Shown here: positions 5,516 through 53,930 of the stretch, one piece after another
Layout: each line of letters begins with the position of its first letter
How positions within the stretch are numbered: position 1 is the first letter of the stretch
Notes under the pieces: generated by a model
What the model was told of the DNA's origin: nothing
Database searches by the model: none
Seen by the model: only the letters and a program-made list of their open reading frames with translations
NCBI GenBank assembly: GCA_964574545.1
Contig: CAZNOC010000004.1
Coordinates: 1 to 53,930, forward strand
Direction: 5' to 3'
DNA: 53,930 bases
Source: an uncultured Bifidobacteriaceae bacterium
Lineage (GTDB): Bacteria > Acidobacteriota > Vicinamibacteria > Vicinamibacterales > UBA2999
Translations under genes and position numbers: made by a program

Positions 5516-6619
5516 ATGTCCACCGATGTGCTCCAGCCCCAGCGCGTGCTCGACGCCCTTACGGTCGTGATCGACCCCGACCTCGGCAAAGACATCGTCG
5601 CGCTGGGCTTCGTCAAGCAACTGACGATTGACGGGGGGCGTGTGGCCTTCAGTATCGAGTTGACGACCCCGGCGTGCCCCGTCAAGGAGCGGCTGCGCGA
5701 CGAGGCGCACGCGGCCGTGTCGGCCATCCCCGGGGTGACAGGCGTGGTTGTGACGATGACCGCCGTCGTGCGGTCGGTCACCGCACCGGAACACGGACGC
5801 CCGCCCCTGCCAGGCGTCAAGAACGTGATCGCCGTGGGTGCGGGCAAGGGCGGCGTGGGGAAGACCACCGTCTCGGTGAACCTCGCCGTCGCCCTCTCGC
5901 AACGGGGCAGCCGCGTCGGGATCCTGGACGGTGATATCTACGGCCCGAACGTGCCGATCATGTTCGGCATCCAGGCCCAGCTTGGCACGGATGGCGACAA
6001 GATCGTGCCTGCCGAGAAGTTCGGCATTCAGATCGTGTCGATGGGGTTTCTGACGTCCGACGAGACGCCCGTCGTGTGGCGCGGGCCGATGCTGCACAGC
6101 GCCATCCAGCAGTTCTTCCGCGAGGTGGCGTGGAAGGATCTCGATTACCTGATCGTGGACATGCCGCCGGGGACGGGCGACGTGGCGCTCAGCCTCAGTC
6201 AGACCGTACCCGTCGCGGGCGCCATCGTGGTCACGACCCCGCAGCAGGTGTCCCTCGCCGACAGCCGTCGCGCGGTGCGGATGTACCAGAAGCTGAACAT
6301 CCCGACGCTGGGGCTCGTGGAGAACATGAGCTTCTTCGAGTGCCCGAGCTGCCACCACGAAAGCGACATCTTCGGCCACGGTGGCGGTGAGCGAATGGCC
6401 GGCGAACTGGAGATCCCGTTCCTCGGGCGGCTCCCGATCTACCAGCCGATTCGGGTCGGCGGCGATCAGGGCATCCCACTCGTGATCGCCGAACCACAGT
6501 CGGTGGCGTCAAAGGCGTTCGTGGACGTGGCGGAACGCACCGCGGCGCGGGTCTCGATCGCCGCTCACAAGGCCGCGGCGGCCTTCAAGGGAAAGATCCC
6601 GCTGATACCGGTCCGATAG
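5516..6619 (+). CDS. apbC: Fe-S cluster carrier ATPase Mrp/ApbC/NBP35 with N-terminal DUF59 (MIP18) domain
   Basis: Deviant Walker A GKGGVGKTT, CPSCHH cysteine pair, and an N-terminal VIDPDLGKDIVALGFV DUF59-like segment. TGAGGA lies upstream of the ATG. Confidence 0.95.
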   Translation: MSTDVLQPQRVLDALTVVIDPDLGKDIVALGFVKQLTIDGGRVAFSIELTTPACPVKERLRDEAHAAVSAIPGVTGVVVTMTAVVRSVTAPEHGRPPLPGVKNVIAVGAGKGGVGKTTVSVNLAVALSQRGSRVGILDGDIYGPNVPIMFGIQAQLGTDGDKIVPAEKFGIQIVSMGFLTSDETPVVWRGPMLHSAIQQFFREVAWKDLDYLIVDMPPGTGDVALSLSQTVPVAGAIVVTTPQQVSLADSRRAVRMYQKLNIPTLGLVENMSFFECPSCHHESDIFGHGGGERMAGELEIPFLGRLPIYQPIRVGGDQGIPLVIAEPQSVASKAFVDVAERTAARVSIAAHKAAAAFKGKIPLIPVR

Positions 6620-6649
6620 CCGCGCGCTGCATCGGCGCGCGGCTATCGG
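6613..6649. terminator. 15-bp perfect hairpin overlapping the apbC stop codon; candidate bidirectional terminator
   Basis: CCGATAGCCGCGCGC (6613-6627), loop TGCATCG, GCGCGCGGCTATCGG (6635-6649). The left arm contains the TAG at 6617-6619. Confidence 0.55.
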
Positions 6650-6775
6650 CTGTCAGCTGTCAGCTCTCGGCTTCCGGCTTCGGCTTTCGGCCTCGTTCCG
6701 CGTCGAGAGCCGAGAGCTGAAAGCCGATAGCCGAAAGCCGAGGGCCAATCGCCGAGAGCCGATCGCCGAAGGCGA
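6643..6775. repeat. Inverted arrays of heptad repeats (CTnTCGG about 7 copies, then CCGAnAG about 9 copies)
   Basis: Left arm: ctatcgg ctgtcag ctgtcag ctctcgg cttccgg cttcgg ctttcgg. Right arm: ccgagag ctgaaag ccgatag ccgaaag ccgaggg ccaatcg ccgagag ccgatcg ccgaagg. The arrays fill the spacer between the convergent apbC and TonB-receptor genes. Confidence 0.8.
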
Positions 6776-6777
6776 CC

Positions 6778-9159
6778 TTAGAATCCGACCGACATCCCCA
6801 CGTTCACCTGGCGGAAGGGTCCCGGCTGGATGCCCTGCGGGGCGCGTGAGGCGATATAGATGCGGTCGGCGGCGTTCTTGACGCTGACGAAGGGCGCGAA
6901 GCGGCGTGTGCCGCGGCGGAACTCGTAGCTCGCCGATACGTTCCACAGGCCGTACCCCGGCACGGGGCCGACGGTCCCGTCGGCGGATCCCACGGCACGG
7001 TTCTGGTCGTCGCCAAACTGGTCGCCCACGAAGGTGCCATCCACCTGCACCGCCAGGCCGCGCGCATCACGCCATGCCAGGATGAGCGACGTGACGTGCT
7101 CGGGCGCGTACGGCAGCCGGTGACCGGAGAGCACTCCGCTGTCGAAGCGCGCCGTTGGCAGCCAGGTGTAGCGGACGTCTGCCGACAGCCCGGCTTCGCG
7201 TCCCATCCACCGGGCCATGTCCACGCCTGTGCTGACTTCGATTCCGCGGTGCAGCGTCAACCCCGCGTTGACCAGCGTCGTCGTGGCGCCGCCGGAGAGC
7301 GCGGCGGGGACGATCTGGTTGCTGAAGTCGAGCACGAAGAACGTCGCATCGGCGTGCACGCCACGACGAGGCATCCACCGTGTGCCGACCTCGTAGTTCC
7401 AGCTCCGCTCGGCGTCGAGTTCGAGCGAGACGCCCGAGGCGGTGATGGCATCCTTCACGCGCGGCGGGGCGAATCCACGGTGCGCCCCCGCGAACAGCGT
7501 GAAGGCGTCGTGCGCCGACCATGTGGCGCCCAGGCCCGGCACGACCTCGGTCACGGAGTCGTCGTTGCGGACGTCCACCGGCGTCGGCACGCCGCCGATG
7601 GGCGCGCGCAGAATGTGCCGGGTGAACGCGTAGTGCTCGATGCGGACGCCTGGCGTCAGCGTGACGCGCTCTCCCAGGAAGAGGCGGTTCTGCGCGAATG
7701 CCGACCACGCGTCCGCCGGTCTCCGTTCATCGTCCCGCAGGACACGGACGAGTCCCTCCAGGTCCGAATTGAGCTGCTGATCGATGGCCCGCTCGTACAG
7801 GTAGCGCCCGCCGCCTTCGAACGACTGCCGCACGCCGAAGGCCTGGTGGTCGCGCATGAGGCGGGTCTCGACACCGGCCACGCGGAACTCGCGGTCGCGG
7901 CTGAGGGCATCCGTCCGCAGGTACACCGCGCCTCCCGGCACCGTCGTGTCCCCCGCCACGCCCGCGTACACGCGGCCCGCCGCCGGTGCGCGGTCGAAGT
8001 TCTGCCGTCGCCAGAACCGGGTCGTGTCGTACGCGAAGGCAGTCGTCGTGAGGAACGTCCGGTCGTTGACGACGACACGGTGGTGCAGCGAGCCGAACGC
8101 GCGGCGGACATCGAGCTCGTCGCCTGGCACGGCGTTGTCGTTGGGGTTGACGTCGAACTGCGGCTGCGTGAGGCCGAGGTAGGTGGAGTTCGAGATCTCG
8201 TCGTAGTAGTTGGCTTTGAGCGCCAGTGACTGACGGTCGGTCAGCTGCCAGGTGAGCTTCGTCGAGACATCGTTGATGTTGAAGTCAAAGCGCCGAAAGC
8301 CGTCGCCCTGCTTGCGCAGCGCGCCGGCGAAGACGCCGAGCCGCCCATGGGTGACGCCCCAGGATCCCCGGCCGACGAACAGCCCGCGCTGGCCCGCCGT
8401 CAGGTCCACGTCCGTGCGCTGGCGCAGCGGCGGGTCGGGCGTGACGAAGTTCACGACGCCACCGATGGTCTGGGGGCCGAACAGGATCGAGCCGCTGCCC
8501 TTGACGACCTCGACGCGCTGCATCCGCTCGATGGGCGGGCTGTAATACATCTCCGGTTCGCCGTACGGAGCGAGGGCGAGCGGGAGTCCGTCTTCGAGTA
8601 CCAGCACCTGCCGGCTCCGGTCGGGGTTGAGGCCGCGGATGCCGATGCTGAGGCGCATGGCCGCCTGTCCGGCTTCCTCTCGCACGACGACGCCGGGGAT
8701 CCGGCGCAGGACCTCGTTGGCGTCGAAGGTGTGGCTGCGGGCGAGCTCCTCCCGGGAGATGAGGTCGACCGCCCCGGGCACCTCGCGCAGCCGCTCGGCC
8801 GCTTCCCCGACGACATCGACCTGTGTCTCGCGGGAGCGCAGGGCGACGAACGGGACGGCGACCGCGGTCGTCCGGCCGGCGACAACCGGTACGTCGCGCT
8901 GGACGACGTCAGCGAGGTTGTCGGCCTGTACGCGGAGCGTGTAGCGGCCCTCGTCCAGGCCGTCGATGAGGGCGAGGCCGGTGGCATCGGTGACGGCGTC
9001 GGTCCGGGCTTCGAGGATGGCAACGGTGGCGCCGGCGATCACGAGCCCTGAGGGGTCGAGGACGGTGACGCGGAGGGCGCCGGGCGTCTGGGCGGCGGCG
9101 GCGAGGGGGATCAGGCCGGCGAAGGCGAGGGCGAGGAAGGGACGAAGGAACGAAGCCAC
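6778..9159 (-). CDS. TonB-dependent outer-membrane receptor with N-terminal carboxypeptidase-regulatory-like domain
   Basis: Signal peptide VASFLRPFLALAFAGLIPLAAAAQ. Plug-like segment DANEVLRRIPGVVVRE..LEDGLPL. Long beta-barrel region ending in a terminal F. GTG 9159 has GGAGG 5 nt upstream; the track start at 9171 is a TTG that overlaps that RBS. Confidence 0.9.
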   Translation of the reverse strand: MASFLRPFLALAFAGLIPLAAAAQTPGALRVTVLDPSGLVIAGATVAILEARTDAVTDATGLALIDGLDEGRYTLRVQADNLADVVQRDVPVVAGRTTAVAVPFVALRSRETQVDVVGEAAERLREVPGAVDLISREELARSHTFDANEVLRRIPGVVVREEAGQAAMRLSIGIRGLNPDRSRQVLVLEDGLPLALAPYGEPEMYYSPPIERMQRVEVVKGSGSILFGPQTIGGVVNFVTPDPPLRQRTDVDLTAGQRGLFVGRGSWGVTHGRLGVFAGALRKQGDGFRRFDFNINDVSTKLTWQLTDRQSLALKANYYDEISNSTYLGLTQPQFDVNPNDNAVPGDELDVRRAFGSLHHRVVVNDRTFLTTTAFAYDTTRFWRRQNFDRAPAAGRVYAGVAGDTTVPGGAVYLRTDALSRDREFRVAGVETRLMRDHQAFGVRQSFEGGGRYLYERAIDQQLNSDLEGLVRVLRDDERRPADAWSAFAQNRLFLGERVTLTPGVRIEHYAFTRHILRAPIGGVPTPVDVRNDDSVTEVVPGLGATWSAHDAFTLFAGAHRGFAPPRVKDAITASGVSLELDAERSWNYEVGTRWMPRRGVHADATFFVLDFSNQIVPAALSGGATTTLVNAGLTLHRGIEVSTGVDMARWMGREAGLSADVRYTWLPTARFDSGVLSGHRLPYAPEHVTSLILAWRDARGLAVQVDGTFVGDQFGDDQNRAVGSADGTVGPVPGYGLWNVSASYEFRRGTRRFAPFVSVKNAADRIYIASRAPQGIQPGPFRQVNVGMSVGF

Positions 9160-9177
9160 GGGAACCTCCAAGTAATA

Positions 9178-9194
9178 ATGAGACTCAGTCTCAT
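9178..9194. promoter_or_regulatory. Perfect palindromic operator candidate (7-1-7 architecture, Fur-family-like) at the transcription start region of the TonB receptor
   Basis: ATGAGACTCAGTCTCAT, with core TGAGACT-C-AGTCTCA at 9179-9193. It is embedded in an A+T-rich patch (taataatgagactcagtctcatcttat) between the -10 element and the RBS. Confidence 0.45.
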
Positions 9195-9206
9195 CTTATG
9201 GGGTTC

Positions 9207-9236
9207 ATCGTAAATCCGGACCCCGGAGGTCGTCAA
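9207..9236 (-). promoter_or_regulatory. Sigma70-like promoter for the TonB-dependent receptor
   Basis: The minus strand reads TTGACG (9236-9231), 18-nt spacer, TACGAT (9212-9207). A second small palindrome, ATTCTGAGAAT (9241-9251), lies just upstream of the -35 element. Confidence 0.5.
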
Positions 9237-9256
9237 TCAGATTCTGAGAATGGATC

Positions 9257-10483
9257 TCATTTGGCGGGATCGGCCCGCAATCCGCGCATCGCCAGCAGCC
9301 CCAGCACCGGGCCCGGCACCAGCAGCCACGAGGCGTGCTGCCAGCCCACCACCAGCGCCACGCGCGGCAGCGCCTCGATCGTCACGAGCGTCAGCAGAAA
9401 CCCCAGGCACGTCTGCATCGTCAGCGCGGTGCCGACGTGATCGCGCGGGGCGTGCTCGCTGACGAGCGCCGAGAACTGGGCGGAGTCCGCGACGACCGCA
9501 AACCCCCAGATGGCGAGCACGAGGTAGAGCCACTCGGGCCGCCCGCCGTACACGACGCTCATGCCCGCCGCGCAGAGCGCGCTCGTGCCAAGCGCCCACA
9601 TCGCCACCCGCGCGCGGCCCCACCGGTCGGCCAGCAGTCCGGCCAGCACGCACCCGGCGGTGCCAGACCCGATGGCGAGGAAGGCCGCCAGCGAGCCCGC
9701 GGCGCCCGCGTTGGCCACGCCGGACGCCGAGAGACTGGCGGTGGCGAGCACGCCAACCCAGGTCCACATGGCATAGAGCTCCCACATGTGACCGAGGTAG
9801 CCGAAGGTGGCCAGGCGCGCGCCGCGCACCTGGAAGACGCGCCACACCGCGCGCGGGTCGAAGGGCGACGTCACACTGACGTGCGGGCCATCGCGCACGG
9901 TCAGCAGGACGAGGATGCCGCCCGTCACCGCGAGGGCGGAGGCCAGCAGCATCGGCGATCGCCAGTCGCTGCCGAAGAGGGCCGTCAGCAGGTAGGGGAA
10001 CGCCTTGCCAAGCGTCAGGGCGCCGATCAGGATGCCAAGCGCCAGCCCGCGCCGATCGAGGAACCAGCCGGCGGCGATCTTCATCGCCGGCGGGTAGACG
10101 CACGCGAGCGCCGCGCCGGTGACGGCGCGCAAGGCGATCACCAAACCTGGCGACTCGGTGAGCAGAACGCTCGCGTTGGCGGCGGCGCCGGCGAGGCACC
10201 CCAGGAAGACCAGCCGGCGCGGGTTGATGAGATCGGCGAGGTTGCTGACGGCGCTGCCGAGGGTGCCCGCGACGAACCCGGCCTGCACGGCGAGCGTGAG
10301 CCAGGAGGCCTGTCGAGGGGTGAGCGCCAGCTCGAGGGCGAGCCACGGCGCGACCGCGGTGGCCGAGAACCACAGCGTCATGCCCAGCCACTGCGCCAGC
10401 GCGACCAGCGCGAGCATGCGCCAGGCGTTCGGAGGTTTACCCGATGGGCGGATCACGATACGATCGAGCGCTGGCTCACCCAC
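9257..10483 (-). CDS. MFS transporter
   Basis: About 12 hydrophobic segments across 408 aa with typical MFS topology. The start is uncertain: ATG 10417 (MLALVALAQW) is an alternative that would leave a 68-nt divergent spacer to the M16 peptidase gene. Confidence 0.85.
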   Translation of the reverse strand: MGEPALDRIVIRPSGKPPNAWRMLALVALAQWLGMTLWFSATAVAPWLALELALTPRQASWLTLAVQAGFVAGTLGSAVSNLADLINPRRLVFLGCLAGAAANASVLLTESPGLVIALRAVTGAALACVYPPAMKIAAGWFLDRRGLALGILIGALTLGKAFPYLLTALFGSDWRSPMLLASALAVTGGILVLLTVRDGPHVSVTSPFDPRAVWRVFQVRGARLATFGYLGHMWELYAMWTWVGVLATASLSASGVANAGAAGSLAAFLAIGSGTAGCVLAGLLADRWGRARVAMWALGTSALCAAGMSVVYGGRPEWLYLVLAIWGFAVVADSAQFSALVSEHAPRDHVGTALTMQTCLGFLLTLVTIEALPRVALVVGWQHASWLLVPGPVLGLLAMRGLRADPAK

Positions 10484-10485
10484 GA

Positions 10486-11790
10486 ATGCACATACCCTAC
10501 ACCAAGCGGACGCTCGCCAACGGGCTCGACGTGCTCGTGCACGAGGACCATCACCTGCCGATGGTGGCAGTCAACGTGTGGTACCACGTCGGCTCGAAGA
10601 ACGAGCGCCCCGGCCGCACCGGGTTCGCCCACCTGTTCGAGCACCTGATGTTCGAGGGGTCGGCGCACCATGACAGCGGCTACTTCGAACCGCTCCAGCG
10701 CGCCGGCGCTCTCCTGAACGGTTCGACCAACGCCGATCGCACGAACTACTGGGAGGTGGTGCCGACGGGCGCCCTCAACCTGGCGCTCTGGATGGAGTCG
10801 GATCGCATGGGCCACCTGCTGCCGGCCCTGACCGATGCGAAGTTCAACAACCAGCGTGACGTCGTGCTCAACGAGCGCCGCCAGCACTACGAGAACCGGC
10901 CGTACGGCCTGGCCGGCATCGCCGCGTCGGCCGCCCTCTTTCCCTCCGACCACCCGTATCACTGGATGACGATCGGCTCGGCCGACGATCTGCGGGCGTC
11001 CACGCTCGACGAGGTCAGAGCGTTCTTCCGGGCGTACTACCACCCGGCCAACGCGTCGCTGACGCTGGCCGGCGACGTGGACACGGACGCGGCGTTCGAT
11101 CTGGCCGAGCAGTACTTCGGCGACATCCCCGCGGGCCCCGACGTCGCGCCGGTGGCGCATGCCGCGTCACTCGAAACCACGGCCCGGCTCCGGCTGGACG
11201 ACCGCGTCGAGCTGCCGCGCCTCTATCTGAGCTGGCATTCTCCGGCGATGTTCGCGCCGGGTGACGCCGAACTCGATCTCGCCGCCGACCTCCTGGCGCA
11301 CGGCAAGACCTCGCGCCTCTATCGAGCGCTCGTCTACGAGCAGCGCATCGCGGTGGACGTTGTGGCGTACCAGAGCTCGCGGGAGATGTCGGGCATCTTC
11401 CAGCTGATTGCCACCGCCGCGCCGGGCCACGCTCTCGAGGCCCTCGAGAACGCGATCCTCGCCACGATCGCGGCCGTGGCGGCCGATGGCCCGACGCCCG
11501 GGGAGGTCGAGCGCAGCCTCACCCAGGTCGAGTCCCAGTTCATCTACAGGCTGCAGACGATCGGCGGCTTCGGCGGGAAGTCGGACCAGCTGAACGCCTA
11601 CAACGTGTTCCGCGGCGAGCCAGGCTACTTTGACGCCGACCGTGCGAGGTACCGGTCGGTGACCCCGGGCGCCATGGCGGCGGCCGTCGCGCGATACCTC
11701 GTGGAGGCGCCGCACGTGGCCTTGAGCGTCGTGCCGCACGGCGCGGCGCACCTGGCGCTGCCCGGTTCCGTCCCGGTGCAGGCCTCATGA
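10486..11790 (+). CDS. M16 (pitrilysin) family zinc peptidase, catalytic subunit type
   Basis: Inverted zinc motif HxxEH in GFAHLFEHLMFEGS. The start was chosen at MHIPYTKRTLANGL, the typical M16 N-terminus. Confidence 0.9.
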   Translation: MHIPYTKRTLANGLDVLVHEDHHLPMVAVNVWYHVGSKNERPGRTGFAHLFEHLMFEGSAHHDSGYFEPLQRAGALLNGSTNADRTNYWEVVPTGALNLALWMESDRMGHLLPALTDAKFNNQRDVVLNERRQHYENRPYGLAGIAASAALFPSDHPYHWMTIGSADDLRASTLDEVRAFFRAYYHPANASLTLAGDVDTDAAFDLAEQYFGDIPAGPDVAPVAHAASLETTARLRLDDRVELPRLYLSWHSPAMFAPGDAELDLAADLLAHGKTSRLYRALVYEQRIAVDVVAYQSSREMSGIFQLIATAAPGHALEALENAILATIAAVAADGPTPGEVERSLTQVESQFIYRLQTIGGFGGKSDQLNAYNVFRGEPGYFDADRARYRSVTPGAMAAAVARYLVEAPHVALSVVPHGAAHLALPGSVPVQAS

Positions 11791-13157
11791 GCCGCGTGGA
11801 TCGCTCGACGCTGCCCGCGACGGGTCCGGCGCGGGCATTTCGCCTTCCCCGCATCGAGAAGCGCACCCTCGCCAACGGCCTCGAGATCCGGGCGCTCGAG
11901 CACCGCGCCGTCCCCGTCGTGTCGATGGTCGTGATCCTGCCGGGGGGGTCGTCCGCCGATCCGGCCGGCCGGCCCGGACTCGCCGCGCTCACGGCCGACC
12001 TCATCGACGAAGGCAGCGGCGGACGCGACGCGCTCGAAGTCGCGGACCGTCTCGCGAGACTTGGCGCCGATCTCGACATCGACGTCACCGTGGACGCCAC
12101 CGTCATCTCGATCACGACACTGGCGCGCTGCCTTGGCCCCGCACTCGAGATGCTCGCCGAGATCATCACGGCGCCCACCATCACCGGCGAGGACTTCGCC
12201 CGGGTGCGCAACCTCAGGCTCGACCGCCTGCGCCAGATGCGGGACCACGCGCCGGCCGTCGCCGAACGCGCCTTCGCACGCCTCCTCTACCGCGATCATC
12301 CCTACGGCCACCTCAGCCTCGGGACCGAAGCGTCGCTCGAGGCGACGACCGCGGACGAGGTTCGCGCGTTCCATCAGGGCACGTACGTGCCGGCGGGCGC
12401 GACCCTGGTCATTGCCGGTGATGCCGGCGCCGGAGACCTCCTCGATGCCGGCGCGGGTATCTTCGGAGGATGGGAGGCCCGGGTCTCGACCGCCGACCGC
12501 GCCGCGGCACTGGCACCACCATCGCTCGTGCCGGCCGAACGGCTGGCGGTCGTGCCCCGGCCGGGCGCCGCGCAGTCCGAGCTCCGGATCGGGCACGTGT
12601 GCGCGTCGAGGGACACGCCCGACTATCACGCCCTGCTGCTGCTGAACACGATCCTGGGCGGCCAGTTCGTGAGCCGCATCAACCTCAACCTGCGCGAGGA
12701 CAAGGGCTACACGTACGGGGCGCGCACCGGCATCGACCTCCGGCGAGGCCTGGGCCCATTTGTCCTGCAGGCGAGCGTCCAGACGGAGGTGACGGCGGCC
12801 GCCATCACTGAAGCGATTCGCGAAATCGAGGTGGTCCGCGGTGCCCGTCCGGTGACCGGCCCCGAACGCGATCTCGCGGTGGCCTCTCTGACGCTCGGCT
12901 ACCCGCGCGGGTTCGAGACCGCCCAGCAGGTGGCTCGCTCCGTCGCGCAACTGGCCCTGCACCGGCTGCCCGATTCCTACTTCGAGGACTTCGTGCCGGC
13001 CGTGTCGCAAGTCAGCGTGTCGGAGATCACCAGGGTGGCTCAGGACTACCTCAATCCCTCGCGCCTCGTGACGCTCGTGGTCGGCGATCACGCGGTGATC
13101 GCCGAGTCGCTGTCGACGCTCGATCTCGGCGCACCCGCGGTGCTGGAGACCAAGTGA
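11787..13157 (+). CDS. M16 family peptidase-like protein lacking HxxEH (non-catalytic partner type)
   Basis: ATGA overlap with the upstream M16 gene. The equivalent position reads GLAALTADLIDEGS, with no His-x-x-Glu-His. Confidence 0.85.
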   Translation: MSRVDRSTLPATGPARAFRLPRIEKRTLANGLEIRALEHRAVPVVSMVVILPGGSSADPAGRPGLAALTADLIDEGSGGRDALEVADRLARLGADLDIDVTVDATVISITTLARCLGPALEMLAEIITAPTITGEDFARVRNLRLDRLRQMRDHAPAVAERAFARLLYRDHPYGHLSLGTEASLEATTADEVRAFHQGTYVPAGATLVIAGDAGAGDLLDAGAGIFGGWEARVSTADRAAALAPPSLVPAERLAVVPRPGAAQSELRIGHVCASRDTPDYHALLLLNTILGGQFVSRINLNLREDKGYTYGARTGIDLRRGLGPFVLQASVQTEVTAAAITEAIREIEVVRGARPVTGPERDLAVASLTLGYPRGFETAQQVARSVAQLALHRLPDSYFEDFVPAVSQVSVSEITRVAQDYLNPSRLVTLVVGDHAVIAESLSTLDLGAPAVLETK

Positions 13158-41316: not shown

Positions 41317-41317
41317 G

Positions 41318-45965: not shown

Positions 45966-45971
45966 GGGGTT

Positions 45972-46067: not shown

Positions 46068-46101
46068 TGGACGAATTGGCGACGGTCCCGCCGTTCTTCC
46101 C

Positions 46102-46551
46102 TCACTCCAGGTGCGACCGCAGCATCCAGGCGTGCTTCTCGTGGACGTCGAGGCGGCGCGTGGCCAGGTCGGCGGTGGCCTGATCCCGTACCGCCTCTGC
46201 GGCTTCGATCACGCGGCGCGCTGATTCCGACACGCGTTCCTGATCCGCGACCAGGTTGGCGATCATCGCCTTCGCGTCCGGCCGGCCCGTCTCTTCCTTC
46301 ACCGTCGCCAACTCCATGAACGCGCTGTAGCTGCCCGGAGCGAACGCGCCCAGCGAACGGATGCGCTCGGCCACCTCGTCCACGGCCGTCGCCAGTTCGG
46401 TGTACTGGGTCTCGAAAAGCGTGTGCAGCGTGGTGAACATCGGGCCGGTGACGTTCCAGTGGTAGTTGTGGGTCTTGGTATAGAGCGTGTAGCTGTTGGC
46501 CAGAAGCGTCGACAGCGTGTCGACGACGGCCTGCTTTTCTGTGGTGCTCAT
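46102..46551 (-). CDS. dps: Dps (DNA starvation/stationary-phase protection, ferritin-like)
   Basis: HWNVTGPMFTTLHTLFETQY and a conserved Dps core. ATG 46551 is preceded by AGGAGG. The remainder of track ORF 46102..47877 is a shadow of plus-strand genes. Confidence 0.92.
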   Translation of the reverse strand: MSTTEKQAVVDTLSTLLANSYTLYTKTHNYHWNVTGPMFTTLHTLFETQYTELATAVDEVAERIRSLGAFAPGSYSAFMELATVKEETGRPDAKAMIANLVADQERVSESARRVIEAAEAVRDQATADLATRRLDVHEKHAWMLRSHLE

Positions 46552-46657
46552 CAAAGGCCTCCTGCCTTCATTAGACTCGAAATCGGCGGCCCCGTGCGCG
46601 CTGTGGCCAGCCTCCGTGGTCGGGCTCGCGGCGGCGGCGGGCTCTGGGCGCGCCGAG

Positions 46658-46663
46658 TATAAT
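46658..46663 (+). promoter_or_regulatory. Consensus -10 hexamer TATAAT, 17 nt upstream of the queD ATG
   Basis: gagTATAATttcctcgagctgcacacATG. No SD lies between the hexamer and the ATG, which implies a very short leader. Confidence 0.4.
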
Positions 46664-46680
46664 TTCCTCGAGCTGCACAC

Positions 46681-47118
46681 ATGGAAAAGATCATCGTTCA
46701 CGCGAAGTTTCATACCGGGCACCGGCAACTGGGCTATCCGGGCAAGTGCAAGTGGGTGCACGGCCACACATGGCGCGGCACCGTGACCGTGTCGGCCGAC
46801 GAGTTTCCGCGGGACGATCTCGACATGTCGCTGGACTTCGGCGACATCAAGCACATCATGCGGAATCTCGACCACAAGATTCTGGTGACCGAGCAGGACA
46901 CGACGTTTCTCGACCCGAACCTCTTCGAGCCCGAGGGCGTGGTCCTGCTCAAGGGCAAGGGCCCCAGTGTTGAGAACGTCGCGCATTACGTGTTCGACCA
47001 CGTCGTGGATCTCATCGAGGCGAAGTACCCGGGGCGGGGCGTGCGATACGCGATTGAGGTCTCGATTCAGGAGACGGAGAACAACATCTTCGTTGTCCAG
47101 AAGGACGTCACGGTCTAG
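46681..47118 (+). CDS. queD: 6-carboxy-5,6,7,8-tetrahydropterin synthase (PTPS family)
   Basis: His triad context HTGHRQLGYPGKCKWVHGHTWRGTVTV. 145 aa. Visibly lower-G+C codons than the neighbouring genes. Confidence 0.85.
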   Translation: MEKIIVHAKFHTGHRQLGYPGKCKWVHGHTWRGTVTVSADEFPRDDLDMSLDFGDIKHIMRNLDHKILVTEQDTTFLDPNLFEPEGVVLLKGKGPSVENVAHYVFDHVVDLIEAKYPGRGVRYAIEVSIQETENNIFVVQKDVTV

Positions 47119-47217
47119 CTGCACACCGCGAGGCCTCGGCCGATTGCGCTGTTGTTGCGCCGGGATTCCTGACATCCTGAGCTGAACGTGCGCCGGCGCG
47201 GCGCGCCGGAGTTCTCC

Positions 47218-47934
47218 GTGTCTACCGATGGCCCTCCCGTCTTCGAAGCGCGCGGTCTCACCAAGGTCTACACCATGGGCGAGGTGCCTGTGCAGGCGTT
47301 GCGCGGCATCGACTTCGATCTTCGCGCGTCGGAGTTCGTCGTGCTGCTGGGGCCGTCGGGGAGCGGCAAGTCCACGCTGCTCAACATCCTCGGGGGGCTC
47401 GACACGCCAACGGCCGGCCGTGTCCTGTACCACGGCACCGACCTGGGGGCGGCCGACGAGGCCGCGCTGACCGAGTATCGGCGCCGGCACGTCGGGTTCG
47501 TCTTCCAGTTCTACAACCTCATCCCGAGCCTCACGGCCCGCGAGAACGTGGCGCTCGTCACCGAGATCGCCGACGACCCCATGGTGCCGGACGATGCGCT
47601 GGCGCTCGTCGGGCTCGAGCACCGCCTCGGGCACTTTCCGTCGCAGCTCTCGGGCGGCGAGCAGCAGCGTGTGGCGATCGCGCGCGCCATTGCCAAGCGC
47701 CCGAGCGTGCTCCTGTGCGACGAGCCAACGGGGGCCCTCGATATCACCACCGGGATCGTCGTCCTCGAGGCGATCGCCCGCGTGAACGAGGAACTGGGGA
47801 CCGCGACGGTCGTCATCACGCACAACGCCGCCATTTCGGCGATGGCCGACCGCGTCGTGCGCCTCGCCGACGGGCATGTCGCCGGCGAGGAGCGGAATCA
47901 GTCGCGGCGCGCCGCGCGGGAGCTGGTGTGGTGA
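47218..47934 (+). CDS. ABC transporter ATP-binding protein (MacB/LolD-type)
   Basis: Walker [10 protein letters not shown], signature [14 protein letters not shown], Walker [16 protein letters not shown] 47218 has GGAG 6 nt upstream; the track start, GTG 47188, is possible but less well supported. Confidence 0.9.
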
Positions 47935-50309
47935 GGCGCGTGACGCTCTCGGCGCTCGACCGCAAGCTGCTCCGTGACCTGTGGGGTATGAAGGGCCAGG
48001 CCGCGGCCATCGGGCTCGTGATGGCGGCGGGCGTCTCGATGTTCGTCATGTACCTGTCGAACTTCGAGTCGTTGCGGCGCACGCAGACGGCCTACTACGA
48101 GCAGCAGCGCCTGGCGGATGTGTTCGCGTCGCTCAAGCGCGCCCCGGAGCGGCTGAGCACGCGGATAGCCGCGATTCCGGAAGTGGCGGCTGTGGACACG
48201 CGGGTGGTCGTCAATGTGACGCTGGACGTGCCGGGGTTCTCGGAGCCGGCCAGCGGGCGCCTGATCTCGGTGCCCCCCAGCGGGCGGCCCCTGCTGAATG
48301 ACGTCGTGCTGCGCCGGGGACGCTGGCTGGACCCGGCGCGACCTGACGAGGTGCTCGCAAGCGAGGCGTTTGTCGATGCGCACGGCTTCGTGCCGGGGGA
48401 TAGGGTGTCGGCCGTCATCAACGGCCGTCGCCGGCAGCTCCAGATTGCCGGCGTCGTGCTCTCTCCGGAGTACGTCTACTCCATCCGGCCCGGCGAGATC
48501 ATGCCGGACAACCGGCGCTACGGCGTGTTCTGGATGTCGCGCCGCGCGCTGGCGAGCGCGTTCGACATGGAGGGGGGATTCAACGACGTCGCCCTTCGGC
48601 TGATGCCCGGCGCGGCCCCGGAGGCCGCGATCGCCGCCCTCGACCGGCTGATCGAGCCGTACGGCGGGCTGGGCGCCATCCCCCGCGCCCAGCAACTCTC
48701 GGTGTGGACGCTCGAGAACGAGCTGGCGCAGTTGCAGAGCTTCGGCTTCGTCACGCCCGCCATCTTCCTGGCGGTGGCCGCCTTCGTGCTGAACGTGGCG
48801 CTCGCGCGGGCGCTCGCGCTCCAGCGTTCGCAGGTGGCGGCGCTCAAGGCGCTGGGGTACTCGAATCAGGCCATCGGCTGGCACTACATGAAGTGGGCGG
48901 TCGCCATCGCGACGTGCGGGGCGCTCGCCGGCATCGCCGTGGGCGCCTGGCTCGGCGGCGCGATGATCGAGCTGTACAACGACTTCTTCAAGTTCCCCGC
49001 GCTCGACTACGGATTGTCGCTCAGGGTCGCCCTCGGCGCGCTGGCGTTCAGCCTGGCCGCGGCCGTGCTCGGGGCTCGCACGGCGGTGGCACGCGCCGTC
49101 CGGATCCCGCCCGCCGAGGCGATGCGCCCCGAGCCCCCGGCGCGCTATCACACGAGCATGGCCGAGGCCCTCGGCGTGCTGCGCCGGCTCCCGCATGCCA
49201 GCCGCATGGTGCTGCGCAACCTGGAGCGTTCGCCCGTGCGGGCTGTGGTCTCCATCATCGGCATTGCCTCGGCTGGCGGGATCCTGCTCGTGGGCTTCGC
49301 GATGATCGATGCGATCGACGTGCTGATCACGCGGCAGTTCGAGGAGGCGATGCGCCAGGATGTGAGCCTGTCGTTCGTCGAGCCTCGCGGTGGCGCCGCG
49401 CTGCACGAGGCGGCACGCCTGCCAGGCGTCATCCAGGTCGAACCCATGCGCGTCGTCCCCGCCCGGCTGCGCGCAGGACATCGGTCCCGTCCGCTCGCGA
49501 TCACGGGCCTTGTGTCCCGTCCCGATCTGAACCGGGCGCTCGACCTCGAGGGCCGGGCCCATTCGATGCCCGCGTCGGGGCTGCTGCTGTCGGCCCTGCT
49601 GGCCACGGCGCTCGACGTCCGCCCGGGCGAGTTCGTGCAGGTCGAGGTGCTCGAGGGCCGCCGGCCCGTGCGGCACGTGCCGGTGGCCGGCACCGTGGAC
49701 GATGCGATGGGGCTGCAGGCGTACATGGAGATCGAGGCGCTCCGCGCCCTCGTGGGAGAAGGCGACACCGTCTCGGGCGCCTACCTCCGCGTGGACAGCG
49801 CCGAGACGAACGCGCTCCACGCCCGCGTCAAGGCGCTGCCGCTTGTGGCCGGTGTCGGACTCAAGGATGCGGTGCTGCAAAGCTTTCGCGAGACGATGGC
49901 CGAGAACATGAACCTGATGATCGTCATGAACGTCTTGTTCGCGGGGATCATCGCGTTCGGCGTGGTCTACAACGCGGCGCGCGTCTCGCTGTCCGAGCGG
50001 AGCCACGAGCTGGCGAGCCTCCGCGTGCTGGGCTTTACGCGCGCGGAGATCTCGTCGATCCTGCTTGGAGAACTCGCCATCCTCACGTTGCTGGCCCTGC
50101 CGGTCGGGTCCCTCATCGGCGCCGGGCTCGGGTGGATCATCGCGACGGGGTTCACAAGCGAGGTCTTCCGGATTCCGTTCGTTGCCACGCCCCAGGCTCA
50201 TGCCTGGACGTGGCTCACCGTCATCGCCGCCGCGGCGGTCTCGGGACTGGCCGTCCGCCGCAGGCTCGACCATCTCGACCTCGTGGCGGTGCTCAAGGTG
50301 CAGGGGTAG
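47931..50309 (+). CDS. ABC transporter permease with two FtsX-type modules
   Basis: GTG 47931 overlaps the ATPase TGA (GTGA). N-terminus [30 protein letters not shown]. Two 4-TM FtsX-like blocks separated by large extracytoplasmic domains. Confidence 0.88.
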
Positions 50310-50380
50310 ATCGGGGATCGGGGACCAGGGACCAGGGACCGGGGACCGGGGACCGGGGACCAGGGGCCGGGGATTCAGGG
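50309..50380. repeat. G-rich heptad array (GAYCRGG, about 10 copies) between the permease stop and the adaptor start
   Basis: gatcggg gatcggg gaccagg gaccagg gaccggg gaccggg gaccggg gaccagg ggccggg gattcaggg. The array starts on the G of the TAG stop. Confidence 0.9.
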
Positions 50381-50388
50381 GTGCGTCT

Positions 50389-51576
50389 TTGAAGCGATAT
50401 CGTAGCTGGCTGTTCGGGATCCTGATCGTGGGGGCGCTGCTTGCCGTGGCGTTCTGGCCCCAGGAGATGGCCGTCGATCTCGGTGAGGTGACCCGATCGA
50501 CGCTGCAGGTGACGATCGACGAAGAGGGCGAGACACGTGTCCGCCGCCGCTTCGTGGTGTCGGCGCCCGTGACCGCGCGTGTCCTGCGCATCGAACTCGA
50601 GCCGGGAGATCCGGTCGTGCGCGACGAGACGGTGATTGCCGAGTTGCAGCCCGAGACGCCGGCGCTTCTCGATGCGCGCAGCCGTGCCGAGGCCGAGGCC
50701 GCAGCCGCCGCGGCCCGGGCCGCGCTGGGGAGGACTCGCGCCGAGGTCGAACGGGCCCGCGCGGATCTCGCGCGGCTCGAGCGCGAACTCGCCCGCGAGC
50801 GGGATCTCGATGCGTCCGGCCTGACGACCCGCCAGGCCGTGGACCTTCGAGAGGCGGACGTCGAGGCCGCCCGAGAGACGCTGCGCGCTTCGGAGTTTGC
50901 GAGTGCCTCCGCGGCGTCCGATCTGACACGTGCCGAGGCGCGGCTCGCGCCCTCGACCGGCCGCGGTGGACGCGTGCTGTCGGTGACCGCGCCCATCGAC
51001 GGCGTGGTGCTGCGGCGGCTGCGCGAAAGCGAGGGGCTGGTGCCCGCGGGGGAACCGCTGGTGGAGCTTGGTAACCCGTCCGACCTGGAGATCGTGGCGG
51101 ATCTGCTGTCCACCGACGCCGTGCGGGTGCAACCAGGCGCCGGCGTGCTGATCGATCAGTGGGGAGGGGACACCGTGCTGCGTGCGCGCGTTCGCCGCAT
51201 CGAGCCCGCCGGCTTCACGAAGATCTCGGCGCTCGGTGTCGAAGAGCAGCGAGTCAACGTGGTGCTCGATCTCGAGGATGCCGAGGACGCATGGGCGCGC
51301 CTCGGCGACGGTTACCGCGTGGAGGTGCGCATCATCGTCTGGGAAGGGGCCGACATCGTGACCGTGCCGACGAGCGCGCTCTTTCGCCGCGGCGACGGAT
51401 GGGCCGTGTTCGTCGCCGACGCCGGCCGCGCCAGACTCGCGCCGGTCACGATTGGCCAGCGCAGCCAGACGCATGCCGAAGTGACCGGAGGGCTCTCGCC
51501 CGGCGATCAGGTCGTCCTGCATCCAGGCGATGCCCTCGATGACGGGGCGCGGCTGTCGCCGCGCGGCGAAATCTAG
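50389..51576 (+). CDS. HlyD-family periplasmic adaptor (membrane fusion protein)
   Basis: N-terminal TM segment WLFGILIVGALLAVAF, a coiled-coil AEAEAAAAAARAALGRTRAEVERARADLARLERELA, and beta-barrel/lipoyl-like segments. TTG 50389 is the only start codon between the repeat and the TM segment, so the exact start is uncertain. Confidence 0.8.
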   Translation: MKRYRSWLFGILIVGALLAVAFWPQEMAVDLGEVTRSTLQVTIDEEGETRVRRRFVVSAPVTARVLRIELEPGDPVVRDETVIAELQPETPALLDARSRAEAEAAAAAARAALGRTRAEVERARADLARLERELARERDLDASGLTTRQAVDLREADVEAARETLRASEFASASAASDLTRAEARLAPSTGRGGRVLSVTAPIDGVVLRRLRESEGLVPAGEPLVELGNPSDLEIVADLLSTDAVRVQPGAGVLIDQWGGDTVLRARVRRIEPAGFTKISALGVEEQRVNVVLDLEDAEDAWARLGDGYRVEVRIIVWEGADIVTVPTSALFRRGDGWAVFVADAGRARLAPVTIGQRSQTHAEVTGGLSPGDQVVLHPGDALDDGARLSPRGEI

Positions 51577-51593
51577 GGCAAGATGTAGGGCGA

Positions 51594-53885
51594 ATGCCGC
51601 CGACCGTGCTGCTCGCCGCCCTGCTCGTTCTCTTTTTCCTCTCCGGTGCGGCGGGCCTGATCTACCAGGTACTGTGGCTGCGACTGCTGAGCCTCGTCTT
51701 CGGCGTGACCGTCTACGCCGCTGCGACGGTGCTCGCCAGCTTCATGAGCGGGCTGGCCGTCGGCAGCTGGCTCGCGGGCCGCGCGGGCGCACGCCTCGGC
51801 GATCCCGTCAGGGCGTTCGCGGTCGTCGAAGTCCTGATCGGCGTGTCGGCCCTGGCCACGCCGGTCGCGCTCGATGCCGCCACGGCCGTCTACCTCGCCG
51901 TCTCCGACATCGCCCCCGGTTCGCTGCCGCTTCTCACCCTCGCCCGCTTCCTGTGCTCCTTCCTCGTGCTGTTCGTGCCCACCATGCTCATGGGCGCCAC
52001 GCTTCCGCTGCTCAGCGCCTCGACGCTGGTGCGGGGCGCGCGCTTCGGCGCGCGCATCGGCCTGCTGTACGCTCTCAACACGGCTGGCGCGCTCACCGGC
52101 GCCATGCTCACCGGGTACGTCCTGATTGGCGCCATCGGCATCCAGCGGTCGTTCCTGATCGGAGCCACCCTGAACCTCGTGGTTGGCGCGCTGGCGTTTG
52201 TACTGTCCCGCCACTCGCCCGGCGATCCCGTGCGCGTTGCCGAGGTCCCGGCGCCCGTCGCATCGCCCCGGGCGTCTACCGGTCGCGACCTGCGACCGCT
52301 GGTGCTCGGGGTCATGGCCGTGTCGGGGATCGCGTCGCTGGCCCTCGAGATCGTCTGGTTCCGCGTGCTCGTGCAGTTCCTGCCGGCCACCTCCTACGCC
52401 TTCACCACGATGCTGGCCACCGTGCTTGGGGGCATCGCGCTCGGCAGCGCCCTGGCCTCCCCGGTGTTGCGTCGCGAGCGGGACTGGGTCTGGACCCTGG
52501 CGCTCGTGCAGATTGTCACGAGCCTGACGGTGCTCGCGTCCCTGACGGCCCTCGCCTGGTCGTATGCCGCCGGCTGGCGCACAGGTGGACTGACCCAGGC
52601 CAGCATGCTGGCCATCCTGCCCGCGGCGATCTGCATGGGGCTCGGGTTCCCCATCGGCCTCCGCCTGTGGACCGTGCAGCAGCAGGCCGTCGATCCGGGC
52701 CAGGCCGAGGTGGCGCGGCGCGTCAGCATCCTGTACTCGGTCAACGTCATCGGGGCGATCGCCGGGTCGCTGGCCGGCGGGTTCTTCCTGCTGCCCGCGT
52801 TCGGAAGCCGCCTGTCGCTGATCCTCCTCGCGGGTCTCTACCTGGCGTCCGGTCTCGTGCTGGTCGTTGCGCACGCCACGCCCGCGCGCGCGCTGACCAC
52901 GGCGATCGCGACCGCCGTGCTGTTCGCCATCGGCGCCCAGGCCGTCCCGGATCCCTTCGATGCCGCGCTCCGCCGCCGCCATGGACCCAGCGAGCAGATC
53001 ATCTGGCGCGAGGAAGGGCTGCAGACCAGCGTCAGCGTCCATCGCCGCCCCATCAACAACCGCGTGCTGTACCTCGACGGGCTTCACCAGGCCAACGACA
53101 CCGCCGACATGGTGCGGCTGCACCGGCTGATCGGACTGCTGCCGATGGCCTTGCATCCCATGCCCCACCAGGCGCTCGTCATCGGGCTCGGCGGCGGCGC
53201 GACGCCAGGTGCGGTGAGCCAGCACGCCGGCACCGAGGTGGATGTCGTGGAGCTCTCGGAGACGGTGGTGCGGGGCGCCGGGTACTTCGGCCATGTCAAC
53301 TATGAGGTGCTCGATCGGCCCAACGTCCGCCTGCACGTGGACGACGGCCGCAACTTCCTGCTGCTGACCGGACGTCGCTTCGACGTCATCACCGCCGACA
53401 TCATCCAGCCCGTCCACGCCGGCGCGGGCAACCTCTACTCGCGGGAGTACTTCACCCTCGTCCGGAACGCCCTCGAGGACGACGGGCTCGTGCTGCAGTG
53501 GATCGGCCATCGTCCCGACACGCAGTACAAGCTCATCATGCGCACGTTCCTCGAGGTGTTCCCGGAGACGACCCTCTGGCTCGATGGCAACCTGATGGTA
53601 GGCGCAAAGCGGCCGCTGACCGTGGCGCCGGATCTCGTCGAGCAGAAACGGCAAGACGCCGGCACCCGCGGCGTATTCGACGATGTGGGGCTCGACAGCA
53701 CGGCGACGCTGCTGTCGTGGTACACGGCAGGTCCCGAGGAGATGCGATCGTTTGTCGGCGAGGGCATCGTGCTGTCCGACGACCGGCCGCTCGTCGAGTA
53801 CCACCGATCGCTTCCGGCCGACGACCCTCCCGTGGACGTCTCGGGGCTCCGGGGAGACGTGGGGCGGATCATGGGTGGTGGGTAG
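51594..53885 (+). CDS. Fused polytopic membrane domain plus spermidine-synthase-like (aminopropyltransferase fold) protein
   Basis: N-terminal half with about 10 or more TM segments. C-terminal ALVIGLGGGATPGA and FDVITADIIQP (class I MTase/SpeE-like). Confidence 0.85.
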   Translation: MPPTVLLAALLVLFFLSGAAGLIYQVLWLRLLSLVFGVTVYAAATVLASFMSGLAVGSWLAGRAGARLGDPVRAFAVVEVLIGVSALATPVALDAATAVYLAVSDIAPGSLPLLTLARFLCSFLVLFVPTMLMGATLPLLSASTLVRGARFGARIGLLYALNTAGALTGAMLTGYVLIGAIGIQRSFLIGATLNLVVGALAFVLSRHSPGDPVRVAEVPAPVASPRASTGRDLRPLVLGVMAVSGIASLALEIVWFRVLVQFLPATSYAFTTMLATVLGGIALGSALASPVLRRERDWVWTLALVQIVTSLTVLASLTALAWSYAAGWRTGGLTQASMLAILPAAICMGLGFPIGLRLWTVQQQAVDPGQAEVARRVSILYSVNVIGAIAGSLAGGFFLLPAFGSRLSLILLAGLYLASGLVLVVAHATPARALTTAIATAVLFAIGAQAVPDPFDAALRRRHGPSEQIIWREEGLQTSVSVHRRPINNRVLYLDGLHQANDTADMVRLHRLIGLLPMALHPMPHQALVIGLGGGATPGAVSQHAGTEVDVVELSETVVRGAGYFGHVNYEVLDRPNVRLHVDDGRNFLLLTGRRFDVITADIIQPVHAGAGNLYSREYFTLVRNALEDDGLVLQWIGHRPDTQYKLIMRTFLEVFPETTLWLDGNLMVGAKRPLTVAPDLVEQKRQDAGTRGVFDDVGLDSTATLLSWYTAGPEEMRSFVGEGIVLSDDRPLVEYHRSLPADDPPVDVSGLRGDVGRIMGGG

Positions 53886-53930
53886 TGGGTCGTGGGTAGT
53901 GGGTAGTGGGTGGTGGGTGGTGGGTGGTGG
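53871..53930. repeat. Heptad array GTGGGTn (about 8 copies), starting in the last codons of the preceding gene and running off the window
   Basis: atgggtg gtgggta gtgggtc gtgggta gtgggta gtgggtg gtgggtg gtgggtg gtgg. The TAG stop at 53883-53885 is part of one unit. Confidence 0.85.

Follow-up and report, generated by a model that had tools for sequence, protein, structure and literature searches.

Introduction

Repeats with a unit of seven nucleotides, set head to tail between genes, have been described in several groups of bacteria, and I compare these systems here with the heptamer arrays that occupy seven intergenic spacers in a 53,930-nt stretch of DNA from the order Vicinamibacterales (positions 1 to 53,930, the full length of metagenomic contig CAZNOC010000004.1, assembly GCA_964574545.1; the whole stretch is called the window hereafter). 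According to the account of Mrazek, Guo and Shah (2007) given in two later papers, heptanucleotides are the most abundant long simple sequence repeats (LSSRs) in most repeat-rich genomes, especially large and GC-rich ones, and it was proposed that the length of DNA in contact with the polymerase favours slippage (PMC4679880, PMC4692102). The likeness to the window is close, as LSSRs are also built of head-to-tail 7-nt units, are intergenic and sporadic across lineages, have slippage as their proposed origin and 7 as their commonest long period, and are enriched in large, GC-rich genomes of non-pathogens; however, Acidobacteriota and Gemmatimonadota are absent from the lineages reported in these accounts, and a literature search found no paper tying heptamer repeats to Acidobacteria or Gemmatimonadetes. 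Similarly, the short tandemly repeated repetitive (STRR) sequences of cyanobacteria comprise three tandem heptanucleotides in Calothrix PCC 7601 (Mazel et al., 1990, as cited in PMC4692102) and resemble the window in that several different tandem heptamers share the non-coding DNA of one genome, but they differ in phylum and base composition, and hairpin pairing is not known to be described for them.

A G-rich counterpart was reported by Rehm et al. (2015), who found quadruplex-forming heptamers, GGGAATC and GGGGA(C/T)T, in Xanthomonas and Nostoc with a bias to non-coding DNA, the G-rich strand lying up to 50 nt after a stop codon and the repeats being under-represented between divergent genes (PMC4692102). 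Xanthomonas has 70-75 convergent inverted pairs per genome, the length of the repeats varies between species while the single or paired type is kept, and the genes beside them are of unrelated functional classes (PMC4692102). The two G-rich arrays of the window likewise lie on the sense strand, starting +1 (50310) and -14 (53872) nt from stop codons, and the first two units of the former, GGGGATC, fit GGGNATC. That is two of about ten units, however, the remainder being mostly GGGGACC or AGGGACC, and the 53872 array is TGGGTRG; Xanthomonas uses about one unit genome-wide against at least five in the window, whose inverted pairs are not G-rich; and whereas the repeats of Rehm et al. do form quadruplexes, those of the window match the pattern in sequence.

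Closest in unit are the TAACTGA direct repeats that MacGregor (2015) described in marine Beggiatoaceae, cyanobacteria and Bacteroidetes, which abut stop or start codons and differ by 7-nt insertions or deletions between strains, while the same spacers of relatives are repeat-free and contigs end in repeats, and for which S1, Csp or CsrA-type binders were proposed (PMC4679880). The window shares the AACTG core at a 7-nt phase, the interspersed related 7-mers, the overlap with or abutment on stop codons, the 7-nt steps between strains, the compact spacers of relatives and the contig ends in repeats, and at korB it also has an array that stops a few nucleotides short of a start codon with no Shine-Dalgarno sequence, which is untrue of the arrays at 14563 and 46035, both between convergent genes. 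Its units are nnAACTG (ATAACTG, ACAACTG, ATGACTG), however, with exact TAACTGA present once and never in tandem; they come from another phylum; and they form the arms of hairpins with a CAGTTCAAAG/CTTTGAACTG core and a variable loop, whereas there is only one inverted repeat in the Beggiatoa genome. Rapun-Araiz et al. (2025) demonstrated for hmw of Haemophilus influenzae that its (ATCTTTC)n repeat is one arm of a long hairpin in the 5' untranslated region that is cut by RNase III, and that both transcription and the hairpin are required for copy-number change (PMC12721329). This, too, is a heptamer repeat with variable copy number that forms a hairpin arm (predicted only, in the window), but it belongs to the promoter and 5' untranslated region of a phase-variable adhesin in a host-adapted pathogen and is experimentally proven, whereas the window elements sit at 3' or intercistronic positions of housekeeping operons and their hairpins come from folding predictions. 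Repetitive extragenic palindromic (REP) sequences, bacterial interspersed mosaic elements (BIMEs) and MITEs (miniature inverted-repeat transposable elements) such as Correia, ERIC and RUP are short, dispersed intergenic inverted repeats, which lie at gene 3' ends or inside operons, occur in many copies and can form hairpins in mRNA. The window hairpins differ in that their arms are phased heptamers and their loop is hypervariable, and no GTAG-type REP head, no REP-associated tyrosine transposase (RAYT) among the 20 larger window proteins and no clear target-site duplication was found.

I will argue, at a probability of about 70%, that the window elements are heptanucleotide LSSRs of the STRR-like kind, comprising slippage arrays and a dispersed hairpin family, which were inserted at gene junctions in a Vicinamibacterales genome. 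Repeats of this class have been recorded before in cyanobacteria, Xanthomonas, Burkholderia, Beggiatoaceae and Bacteroidetes, and the novelty implied by an earlier note on this DNA therefore falls away, since stop-adjacent arrays, inverted pairs, whole-unit changes, repeat-free relatives and contig breaks have all been published for other phyla; what is new is the CAGTT hairpin family, the lineage, and how many different units a short stretch contains. In many large bacterial genomes no long microsatellites are commoner than heptamers. To this the window adds a phylum not yet represented, a genome in which many different units lie close together, orthologous junctions of essential operons in both the filled and the empty state, and a natural 15-versus-24-unit variant, together a resource for testing whether such repeats tune operon expression.

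A Period of Seven in Non-Coding DNA

Tandem Repeats Finder (TRF) together with reading of the sequence places period-7 arrays in seven spacers (Table 1), the element at 45972-46067 being too degenerate for TRF but visible in the sequence and as a 33-nt inverted repeat. The earlier note had counted eight spacers; the eighth, at 36058, holds a short, weak repeat of period 8 and then 5 that is no stronger than many intragenic TRF rows and is excluded from the phenomenon. When the window was scanned with fixed 28-nt test windows at lags of 2-15, requiring at least 82% lag identity and using dinucleotide shuffles as controls, lag 7 gave five runs (292 nt) and all other lags none, apart from the harmonic 14; the shuffles gave no lag runs at all, and shorter test windows agree. 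In 1.32 Mb from 83 loci picked only for a GltD-like homologue, lag 7 again stands out, with 15 runs versus 1-4 at other lags, clustered in a few lineages (Acidobacteriota, Gemmatimonadaceae and one Wenzhouxiangella metagenome-assembled genome, MAG), and a histogram of TRF periods also shows the excess. The proposal that one period is common to unrelated units is thus borne out and extends to other lineages.

The arrays are also biased to intergenic DNA: crude gene calls across 118 GC-rich loci make 85% of the arrays of period 7 mostly non-coding, versus 19-28% for periods 3 and 6, and in the window, which has 69-70% G+C, every array lies inside a spacer or overlaps at most the last four codons of a gene. 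As for LSSRs and STRR sequences, then, these are 7-nt tandems beyond chance, with an excess specific to the period, a non-coding location and change by whole units. The note's statement that the arrays are neither coding nor CRISPR also holds. Translation through them is rejected, as GCGAATA and AACTG-type units give stop codons in all three frames, and so is a CRISPR array, as the units are contiguous and 7 nt long and not repeats of 23-50 nt with unique spacers.

One-Directional Arrays Change by Whole Units

There are two architectures, one-directional arrays and hairpins whose arms are inverted heptamer arrays. The one-directional arrays (38262, 50310 and 53872) have no significant predicted fold. 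The first fills the spacer between the GltD-like gene and korA up to the korA ATG at 38370; the second spans from the stop codon of the FtsX permease gene to AGGGG, the Shine-Dalgarno-like sequence of the HlyD adaptor gene, which starts with TTG at 50389; and the third begins ahead of the TAG stop of a spermidine-synthase-like gene and is cut off where the contig ends. A G-quadruplex sequence pattern (at least four G3 tracts) is matched at 50303-50381 and 53873-53924, in both cases on the sense strand and at a stop codon, and these two arrays are the longest of six such matches in the window.

A stromatolite-metagenome contig in the ENA (L081; 68,993 nt) is 99.6-99.9% identical to the window and covers it, by locus coordinates, to about position 53,912, where the contig ends within the 53872 array. 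The spacer between the GltD-like gene and korA measures 114 nt (15 units) in the window and 177 nt (24 units) in L081, a difference of 63 nt, or exactly nine heptamers, distributed over several variant blocks, whereas outside the arrays the assemblies are 99.8% identical and differ by scattered substitutions and a single indel at 3632. The copy-number variation that the earlier note had looked to is also seen between L084 and L086, which have an identical KorA protein and carry eight and seven GAAGTAA units, respectively. Within arrays, variant units are grouped in adjacent blocks, as local duplication predicts, and growth of the arrays by slippage is supported. As a separate observation, the 1-base indel at 3632 lies near a small minus-strand open reading frame (ORF) and is the sole non-array indel in the 38 kb compared with the ENA assembly.

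Hairpins with Inverted Heptamer Arms

The hairpin type is represented at 6631-6773, 40167 and 45966, with a degenerate example at 14508. The two arms of the first fill the 158-nt spacer between the Mrp-like and TonB-receptor genes, and the predicted fold of 6628-6777 has a free energy of -96 kcal/mol (z -7.5) with a mismatch of about 1 nt every 7 nt. Predicted folds at 40167-40250 (z = -4.4) and 45966-46065 (z = -4.45) are also more stable than their shuffles, while that of 14508-14600 does no better than shuffles (z -0.9); there, the left arm is eroded (GTTCCGAGTTCAAG) and the right arm is intact, with CTTTGAACTG followed by about three AACTG heptamer units. The array at 40225-40251 stops 9 nt short of the korB start codon, where there is no Shine-Dalgarno sequence. 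Rfam covariance models gave no match at the gathering score anywhere in the window.

Two observations concern the ends of these elements. The CCGATAG at the end of the Mrp/ParA-like gene, inside the palindrome at 6613-6649, equals one unit of the adjacent array, and either the 6640 array was seeded from the gene end or the element supplies the last codons of the gene. Also, the gene calls of L081 include one of 56 aa across the 45966 hairpin, which sits on the repeat itself.

A Dispersed CAGTT/AACTG Family

The earlier view that each array has its own unit was overstated, as the loci at 14563, 40174 and 45972 belong to one family with the architecture (nnCAGTT)4-CAGTTCAAAG-loop-CTTTGAACTG-(nnAACTG)4 (window members 14508, 40167 and 45966). 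The inner core CAGTTCAAAG ... CTTTGAACTG is exactly common to the three elements, and CTTTGAACTG occurs five times exactly and six times with one mismatch allowed, versus 0.64 expected at one mismatch, always inside them. Among the 80 loci listed in a metagenome scan for this core, at least 28 (about 30) other contigs, from soil and rhizosphere and with 59-65% G+C, show the same architecture, and for one of them the names of the closest protein matches point to Acidobacteriota/Vicinamibacterales. In the soil contigs among these matches the loops measure 9-38 nt and the elements end in GTCAGTT/TAGTTTCC and AACTGAC/GGAAACTA, and the contigs hold other period-7 arrays as well. Many copies lie 3-10 nt past a stop codon, a loose tendency seen with crude gene calls, and the copies have no uniform orientation relative to the genes beside them, as judged from a subset that could be oriented by the loop motif CCCTCAGTKCC.

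Across 27 members the CAGTT/AACTG pentamer is almost invariant at a strict 7-nt phase and the other two positions vary, and the conserved part of the family is this phased pentamer and not the base pairing. Some STRR units of cyanobacteria reportedly also contain CAGT/ACTG. One pair is L124 1214-1290 and L162 3192-3284, whose flanks are 97.4% identical and which carry the element at the same site with unrelated loops (11 vs 27 nt), L162 having 15 additional nucleotides after the element; the loop turns over far faster than the flanks. The family is, like REP and BIME sequences, a short imperfect palindrome with 33-nt inverted arms, conserved in sequence and present in many intergenic copies, and the earlier exclusion of REP and MITE explanations therefore stands in part: no single mobile sequence covers all the arrays, but a REP/MITE-like element fits the three CAGTT/AACTG loci.

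The same scan returned two other groups of matches, which were set aside. About 25 belong to an unrelated conserved palindrome of the human gut, CAGTTCAAAGAATTA...TAATTCTTTGAACTG (L089, L094, L100, L107-L109 and about 20 more contigs), and four to an operator-like palindrome, TTGACTTTGCAGTTCAAAG...CTTTGAACTGCAAAGTCAA, on the GC-rich contigs L091, L106, L137 and L149.

Filled and Empty Junctions

The history of individual junctions can be read from relatives. L082, whose KorA protein is 90% identical to that of the window, has an orthologous array of about 14 AGCGAAT units ahead of korA and a diverged orthologous korA/korB hairpin, whereas in L083 and L084 (85-86% identical KorA protein) the GltD/korA spacers are repeat-free and only 7 and 18 nt long. 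In these two, korA and korB overlap by 4 nt in an ATGA stop/start (L083 11805-11815, L084 11793-11803), where the window (40164-40263) has a 94-nt element whose first bases complete the korA TAG stop; CAT may have been duplicated at this insertion. The window elements are therefore insertions into once-compact junctions. L083 and L084 do carry other heptamer arrays elsewhere, along with some period-9 inverted arrays.

The same GltD/korA junction holds hairpins with heptamer arms in two Gemmatimonadaceae MAGs, with units unrelated to those of the window: (CGAGATT)4...(AATCTCG)4 in L006 (11762-11875; z -10.4, a perfect stem of about 35 bp) and (GGACCGA)n...(TCGGTCC)n in L008 (6369-6480). L002 shares the hairpin architecture of the window, contains the GGCTnTC/GAnAGCC unit of 6640-6775 twice, and has three unit families, each twice within 21 kb. 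The arrays are therefore not all independent, and each genome seems to draw on a restricted number of unit families. Inverted tandem arrays of period 9 (or 8-9) are present in L002 (11822-11901 and 14929-15030) and in L084 (6065-6283), with units such as CACGATGnn and AGGGTGCCA/GCACCCCTG, and hairpins of like architecture with this period mean that 7 is the dominant but not the sole period.

Within the window, elements start between -14 and +7 nt relative to a plus-strand stop codon. The earlier placement of every element on or within about 25 nt of such a stop therefore needs one amendment, for 14563, where the repeat proper begins 56 nt past the stop, although the hairpin containing it begins at +1. 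Three arrays were correctly assigned to operons (GltD-like/korA, korA/korB and FtsX permease/HlyD adaptor). In the annotated parts of the window, three of the four convergent junctions have a hairpin, the spacer of the fourth being only 1 nt; none of the six divergent spacers has an array; and period-7 arrays occupy 4 of the 11 co-directional spacers of at least 60 nt, including the contig-end spacer after 53885.

What the Arrays May Be

The comparisons above show the repeat structure, its confinement to spacers at places where it breaks neither frame nor promoter, length change by whole units, block-wise duplication of units, insertion specific to a lineage and the dispersal of at least one family. 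In the reading that I favour, one-directional arrays grow and shrink by whole 7-nt units, for which slipped-strand mispairing in replication is the simplest cause, while the hairpin family (AACTG core, 7-nt phase, fixed 4+4 units, variable loop) is dispersed through Vicinamibacterales genomes in the manner of REPs and MITEs, by copying or mobility or by gene conversion between copies. Both forms were inserted into formerly compact junctions and survive only where neither reading frame nor promoter was broken, which explains starts at stop codons, filled convergent and intra-operon spacers and the avoidance of divergent ones. The period-specific mechanistic bias that the earlier note had suspected matches the slippage reading of Mrazek et al. 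(2007) as relayed in the later papers (PMC4679880, PMC4692102). Transcribed with their operons, paired arrays may give long imperfect RNA duplexes and G-rich arrays may give G-quadruplexes, and by analogy with hmw these might act as barriers to exonucleases at 3' ends or as processing sites of the RNase III type, and so adjust expression of the genes on either side.

Several points weigh against this reading as it stands. Slippage alone gives no account of the four units per arm in nearly every CAGTT-family copy, of loop replacement between strains that are 97.4% identical, or of the recurrence of few unit families in one genome (L002); and both whole-unit length differences, window versus L081 and L084 versus L086, come from short-read assemblies. 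The RNA-level role is something that I infer from predicted structures. Here, arm-to-arm covariation of the two variable heptamer positions in the 27 family members does not exceed what column composition gives, so that pairing is not demonstrably under selection and selection on RNA structure is unsupported. A scan of positions 1-20000 and 34000-53930 for terminators and promoters called no terminator at any array and found no canonical hairpin-plus-U terminators, terminator-like sites being fewer than in shuffles; and strong termination between korA and korB is unlikely, because their products must be made together and a stable hairpin stands there.

The best-surviving alternative, a possible one that I nonetheless hold to be distinctly less probable, is that the arrays are neutral by-products of a bias in replication or repair, with no function at the RNA or DNA level. 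Close relatives that are repeat-free at the same junctions, the fast turnover of units and copy numbers and the lack of covariation all agree with this, as do the unrelated functional classes of the genes beside the arrays, as in Xanthomonas (PMC4692102). It is less easily reconciled with the retention of an orthologous GCGAATA array and of the korA/korB hairpin between the window and L082, or with the independent gain of heptamer hairpins at the GltD/korA junction in Gemmatimonadaceae (L006, L008) and Acidobacteriota. The absence of arrays from divergent spacers also counts against it, though the same pattern would follow from purifying selection that protects promoters.

Next in order, and tentative, is the idea that all the elements are non-autonomous mobile DNA, REP/BIME- or MITE-like, spread by an enzyme (RAYT or another transposase) that recognises heptamer-phased arms, the one-directional arrays being decayed or expanded half-elements. 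The CAGTT family has much of what this would need: defined ends (GTCAGTT...AACTGAC or TAGTTTCC...GGAAACTA) with inverted arms in many genomic contexts, filled and empty sites in relatives, loops swapped between near-identical strains and, at 14508-14600, a half-decayed copy, while several unit families recur in L002. A search for a target-site duplication or fixed insertion target, however, returned nothing convincing, the sole candidate being a (C)AT duplication of 2-3 nt where one filled site is paired with an empty one, and a Pfam scan of the 20 larger window proteins (smaller ORFs not scanned) found no transposase, RAYT or Y1 transposase. Moreover, mobility leaves the block-wise duplication and whole-unit length change of long arrays unexplained, units differ between loci, and the same junction holds different units in unrelated phyla.

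Two related proposals invoke a protein that reads the repeats, and both seem doubtful to me. In the first, which is improbable, CAGTT/AACTG would be an undescribed, order-wide family of heptad-phased hairpins kept or spread by a specific factor that reads AACTG at 7-nt spacing and whose class would also underlie the TAACTGA repeats of Beggiatoaceae, cyanobacteria and Bacteroidetes; if this were true, heptamer repeats would be the footprint of a conserved nucleic-acid-binding or processing machine and not of generic polymerase slippage. In the second, to which I give a little less credence again, heptamers in general would be phased sites for a trans-acting protein (6-7 nt per domain; cold-shock, S1/OB-fold or DNA-binding) and make up a code for regulation where genes meet, and a conserved reader would be behind the AACTG core that the TAACTGA repeats also have. 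A near-invariant pentamer at strict phase, with spacer positions that do not covary, suggests that sequence and not pairing is kept, the AACTG+2 unit is that for whose repeats S1, Csp or CsrA-type binders were proposed (PMC4679880), and the array at 40225-40251 ends just ahead of a korB start that has no Shine-Dalgarno sequence. However, a single reader is insufficient for at least five unrelated units in a 54-kb window, no candidate protein has been identified, orientation relative to flanking genes is mixed, and the conservation of the pentamer could come equally from recent common descent or gene conversion.

Finally, artefacts of short-read metagenome assembly can be set aside with near certainty, for although contigs do break in arrays and the sole long array compared differs in length between assemblies, like arrays are found in unrelated assemblies by the dozen, some of them NCBI MAGs whose contigs reach hundreds of kilobases, the phenomenon is documented in finished genomes (PMC4692102, PMC4679880), and up to three assemblies, made independently from different sequencing runs, agree exactly in the hairpin arrays. 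Specifically, those at 6640-6775, 14563, 40167 and 45966 are base-identical between the window and the independent ENA assembly, and the 6640 array is identical in a Logan assembly of another run up to the point where that contig stops inside the hairpin. The copy numbers of long arrays are insecure because short-read contigs break within them.

Contigs that start or end in heptamer arrays include the window itself, L082, L099, L124, L146, L157, L162 and L166, as well as L088 at 5595-5708. The arrays appear to be a systematic cause of short-read assembly breaks in this Vicinamibacterales lineage, a practical matter for metagenome assemblies of the order.

Coordinates and Gene Context

The gene map used for Table 1 combines Pfam scans of the window proteins with the gene calls attached to the L081 contig, and the GltD-like and KorA proteins of the window are closest to those of Acidobacteriota/Vicinamibacterales MAGs; searches for exact matches to the GltD-like and HlyD proteins gave none.

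Table 1. Repeat elements, period-7 arrays reported by TRF, and the spacers that contain them, in window coordinates.
Feature	Position	Strand	Units or structure	Context	Source
One-directional array	38262-38368	+	about 15 units: GGCAATT, CGCGAAC, ACGAATA, GCGAATA blocks		
One-directional G-rich array	50310-50376	+	9-10 units: ATCGGGG x2, then ACCAGGG and ACCGGGG blocks		
One-directional G-rich array	53872-53930	+	at least 8.4 units: TGGGTGG, TGGGTAG, TGGGTCG		
Perfect 15-bp palindrome	6613-6649		CCGATAGCCGCGCGC / GCGCGCGGCTATCGG	contains TAG stop of Mrp/ParA-like gene; leads into left arm of large hairpin	
Large hairpin, left arm	6640-6691		about 7 CGGCTnT units (GGCTnTC family)		TRF and unit listing
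Large hairpin, right arm	6704-6773		about 10 CGAnAGC units, inverse of left arm		TRF and inverted-repeat search
CAGTT/AACTG-family hairpin	40167-40252		(nnCAGTT)x4, CAGTTCAAAG, 21-nt loop, CTTTGAACTG, (nnAACTG)x4	between korA and korB	
CAGTT/AACTG-family hairpin	45966-46067		31-nt loop	between convergent MacB-like permease and ferritin-like genes	
Degenerate CAGTT/AACTG-family hairpin	14508-14600			between convergent genes	TRF scores 14572-14590
Weak repeat (excluded)	36058-36091	+	TGATGTGG x2.5 and TGATC x2	at stop codon of ogt-like gene	TRF score 40
Period-7 array	6640-6691		7.6 copies		TRF
Period-7 array	6704-6769		9.4 copies		TRF
Period-7 array	14572-14590		2.7 copies		TRF
Period-7 array	38269-38364		about 14 copies		TRF
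Period-7 array	40169-40193		3.6 copies		TRF
Period-7 array	40225-40251		3.9 copies		TRF
Period-7 array	50312-50373		8.9 copies		TRF
Period-7 array	53872-53930		8.4 copies	truncated by contig end	TRF
Spacer (158 nt)	6620-6777			Mrp/ParA-like (+) / TonB receptor (-); convergent	
Spacer	14508-14609			small ORF (+) / hydrolase-like (-); convergent	
Spacer	38256-38369			GltD-like ferredoxin oxidoreductase (+) / korA (+); operon	
Spacer	40167-40260			korA (+) / korB (+); operon	
Spacer	45966-46101			MacB-like permease (+) / ferritin-like (-); convergent	
Spacer	50310-50388			FtsX permease (+) / HlyD adaptor (+); operon	
Spacer	53886-end			spermidine-synthase-like (+) / contig end	

Two further features of the neighbourhood deserve mention. 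A 591-aa minus-strand ORF can be drawn at 46102-47877, where L081 has only a 149-aa ferritin-like gene (46102-46551), and the longer frame is probably a spurious high-GC extension overlapping plus-strand PTPS and ABC genes. The other is a hairpin at 36150-36233 with 35-nt arms that are 89% complementary and show no heptamer periodicity, which lies in the 407 nt that separate the ogt-like gene from the GltD-like gene, beside more GC-rich stem-loops.

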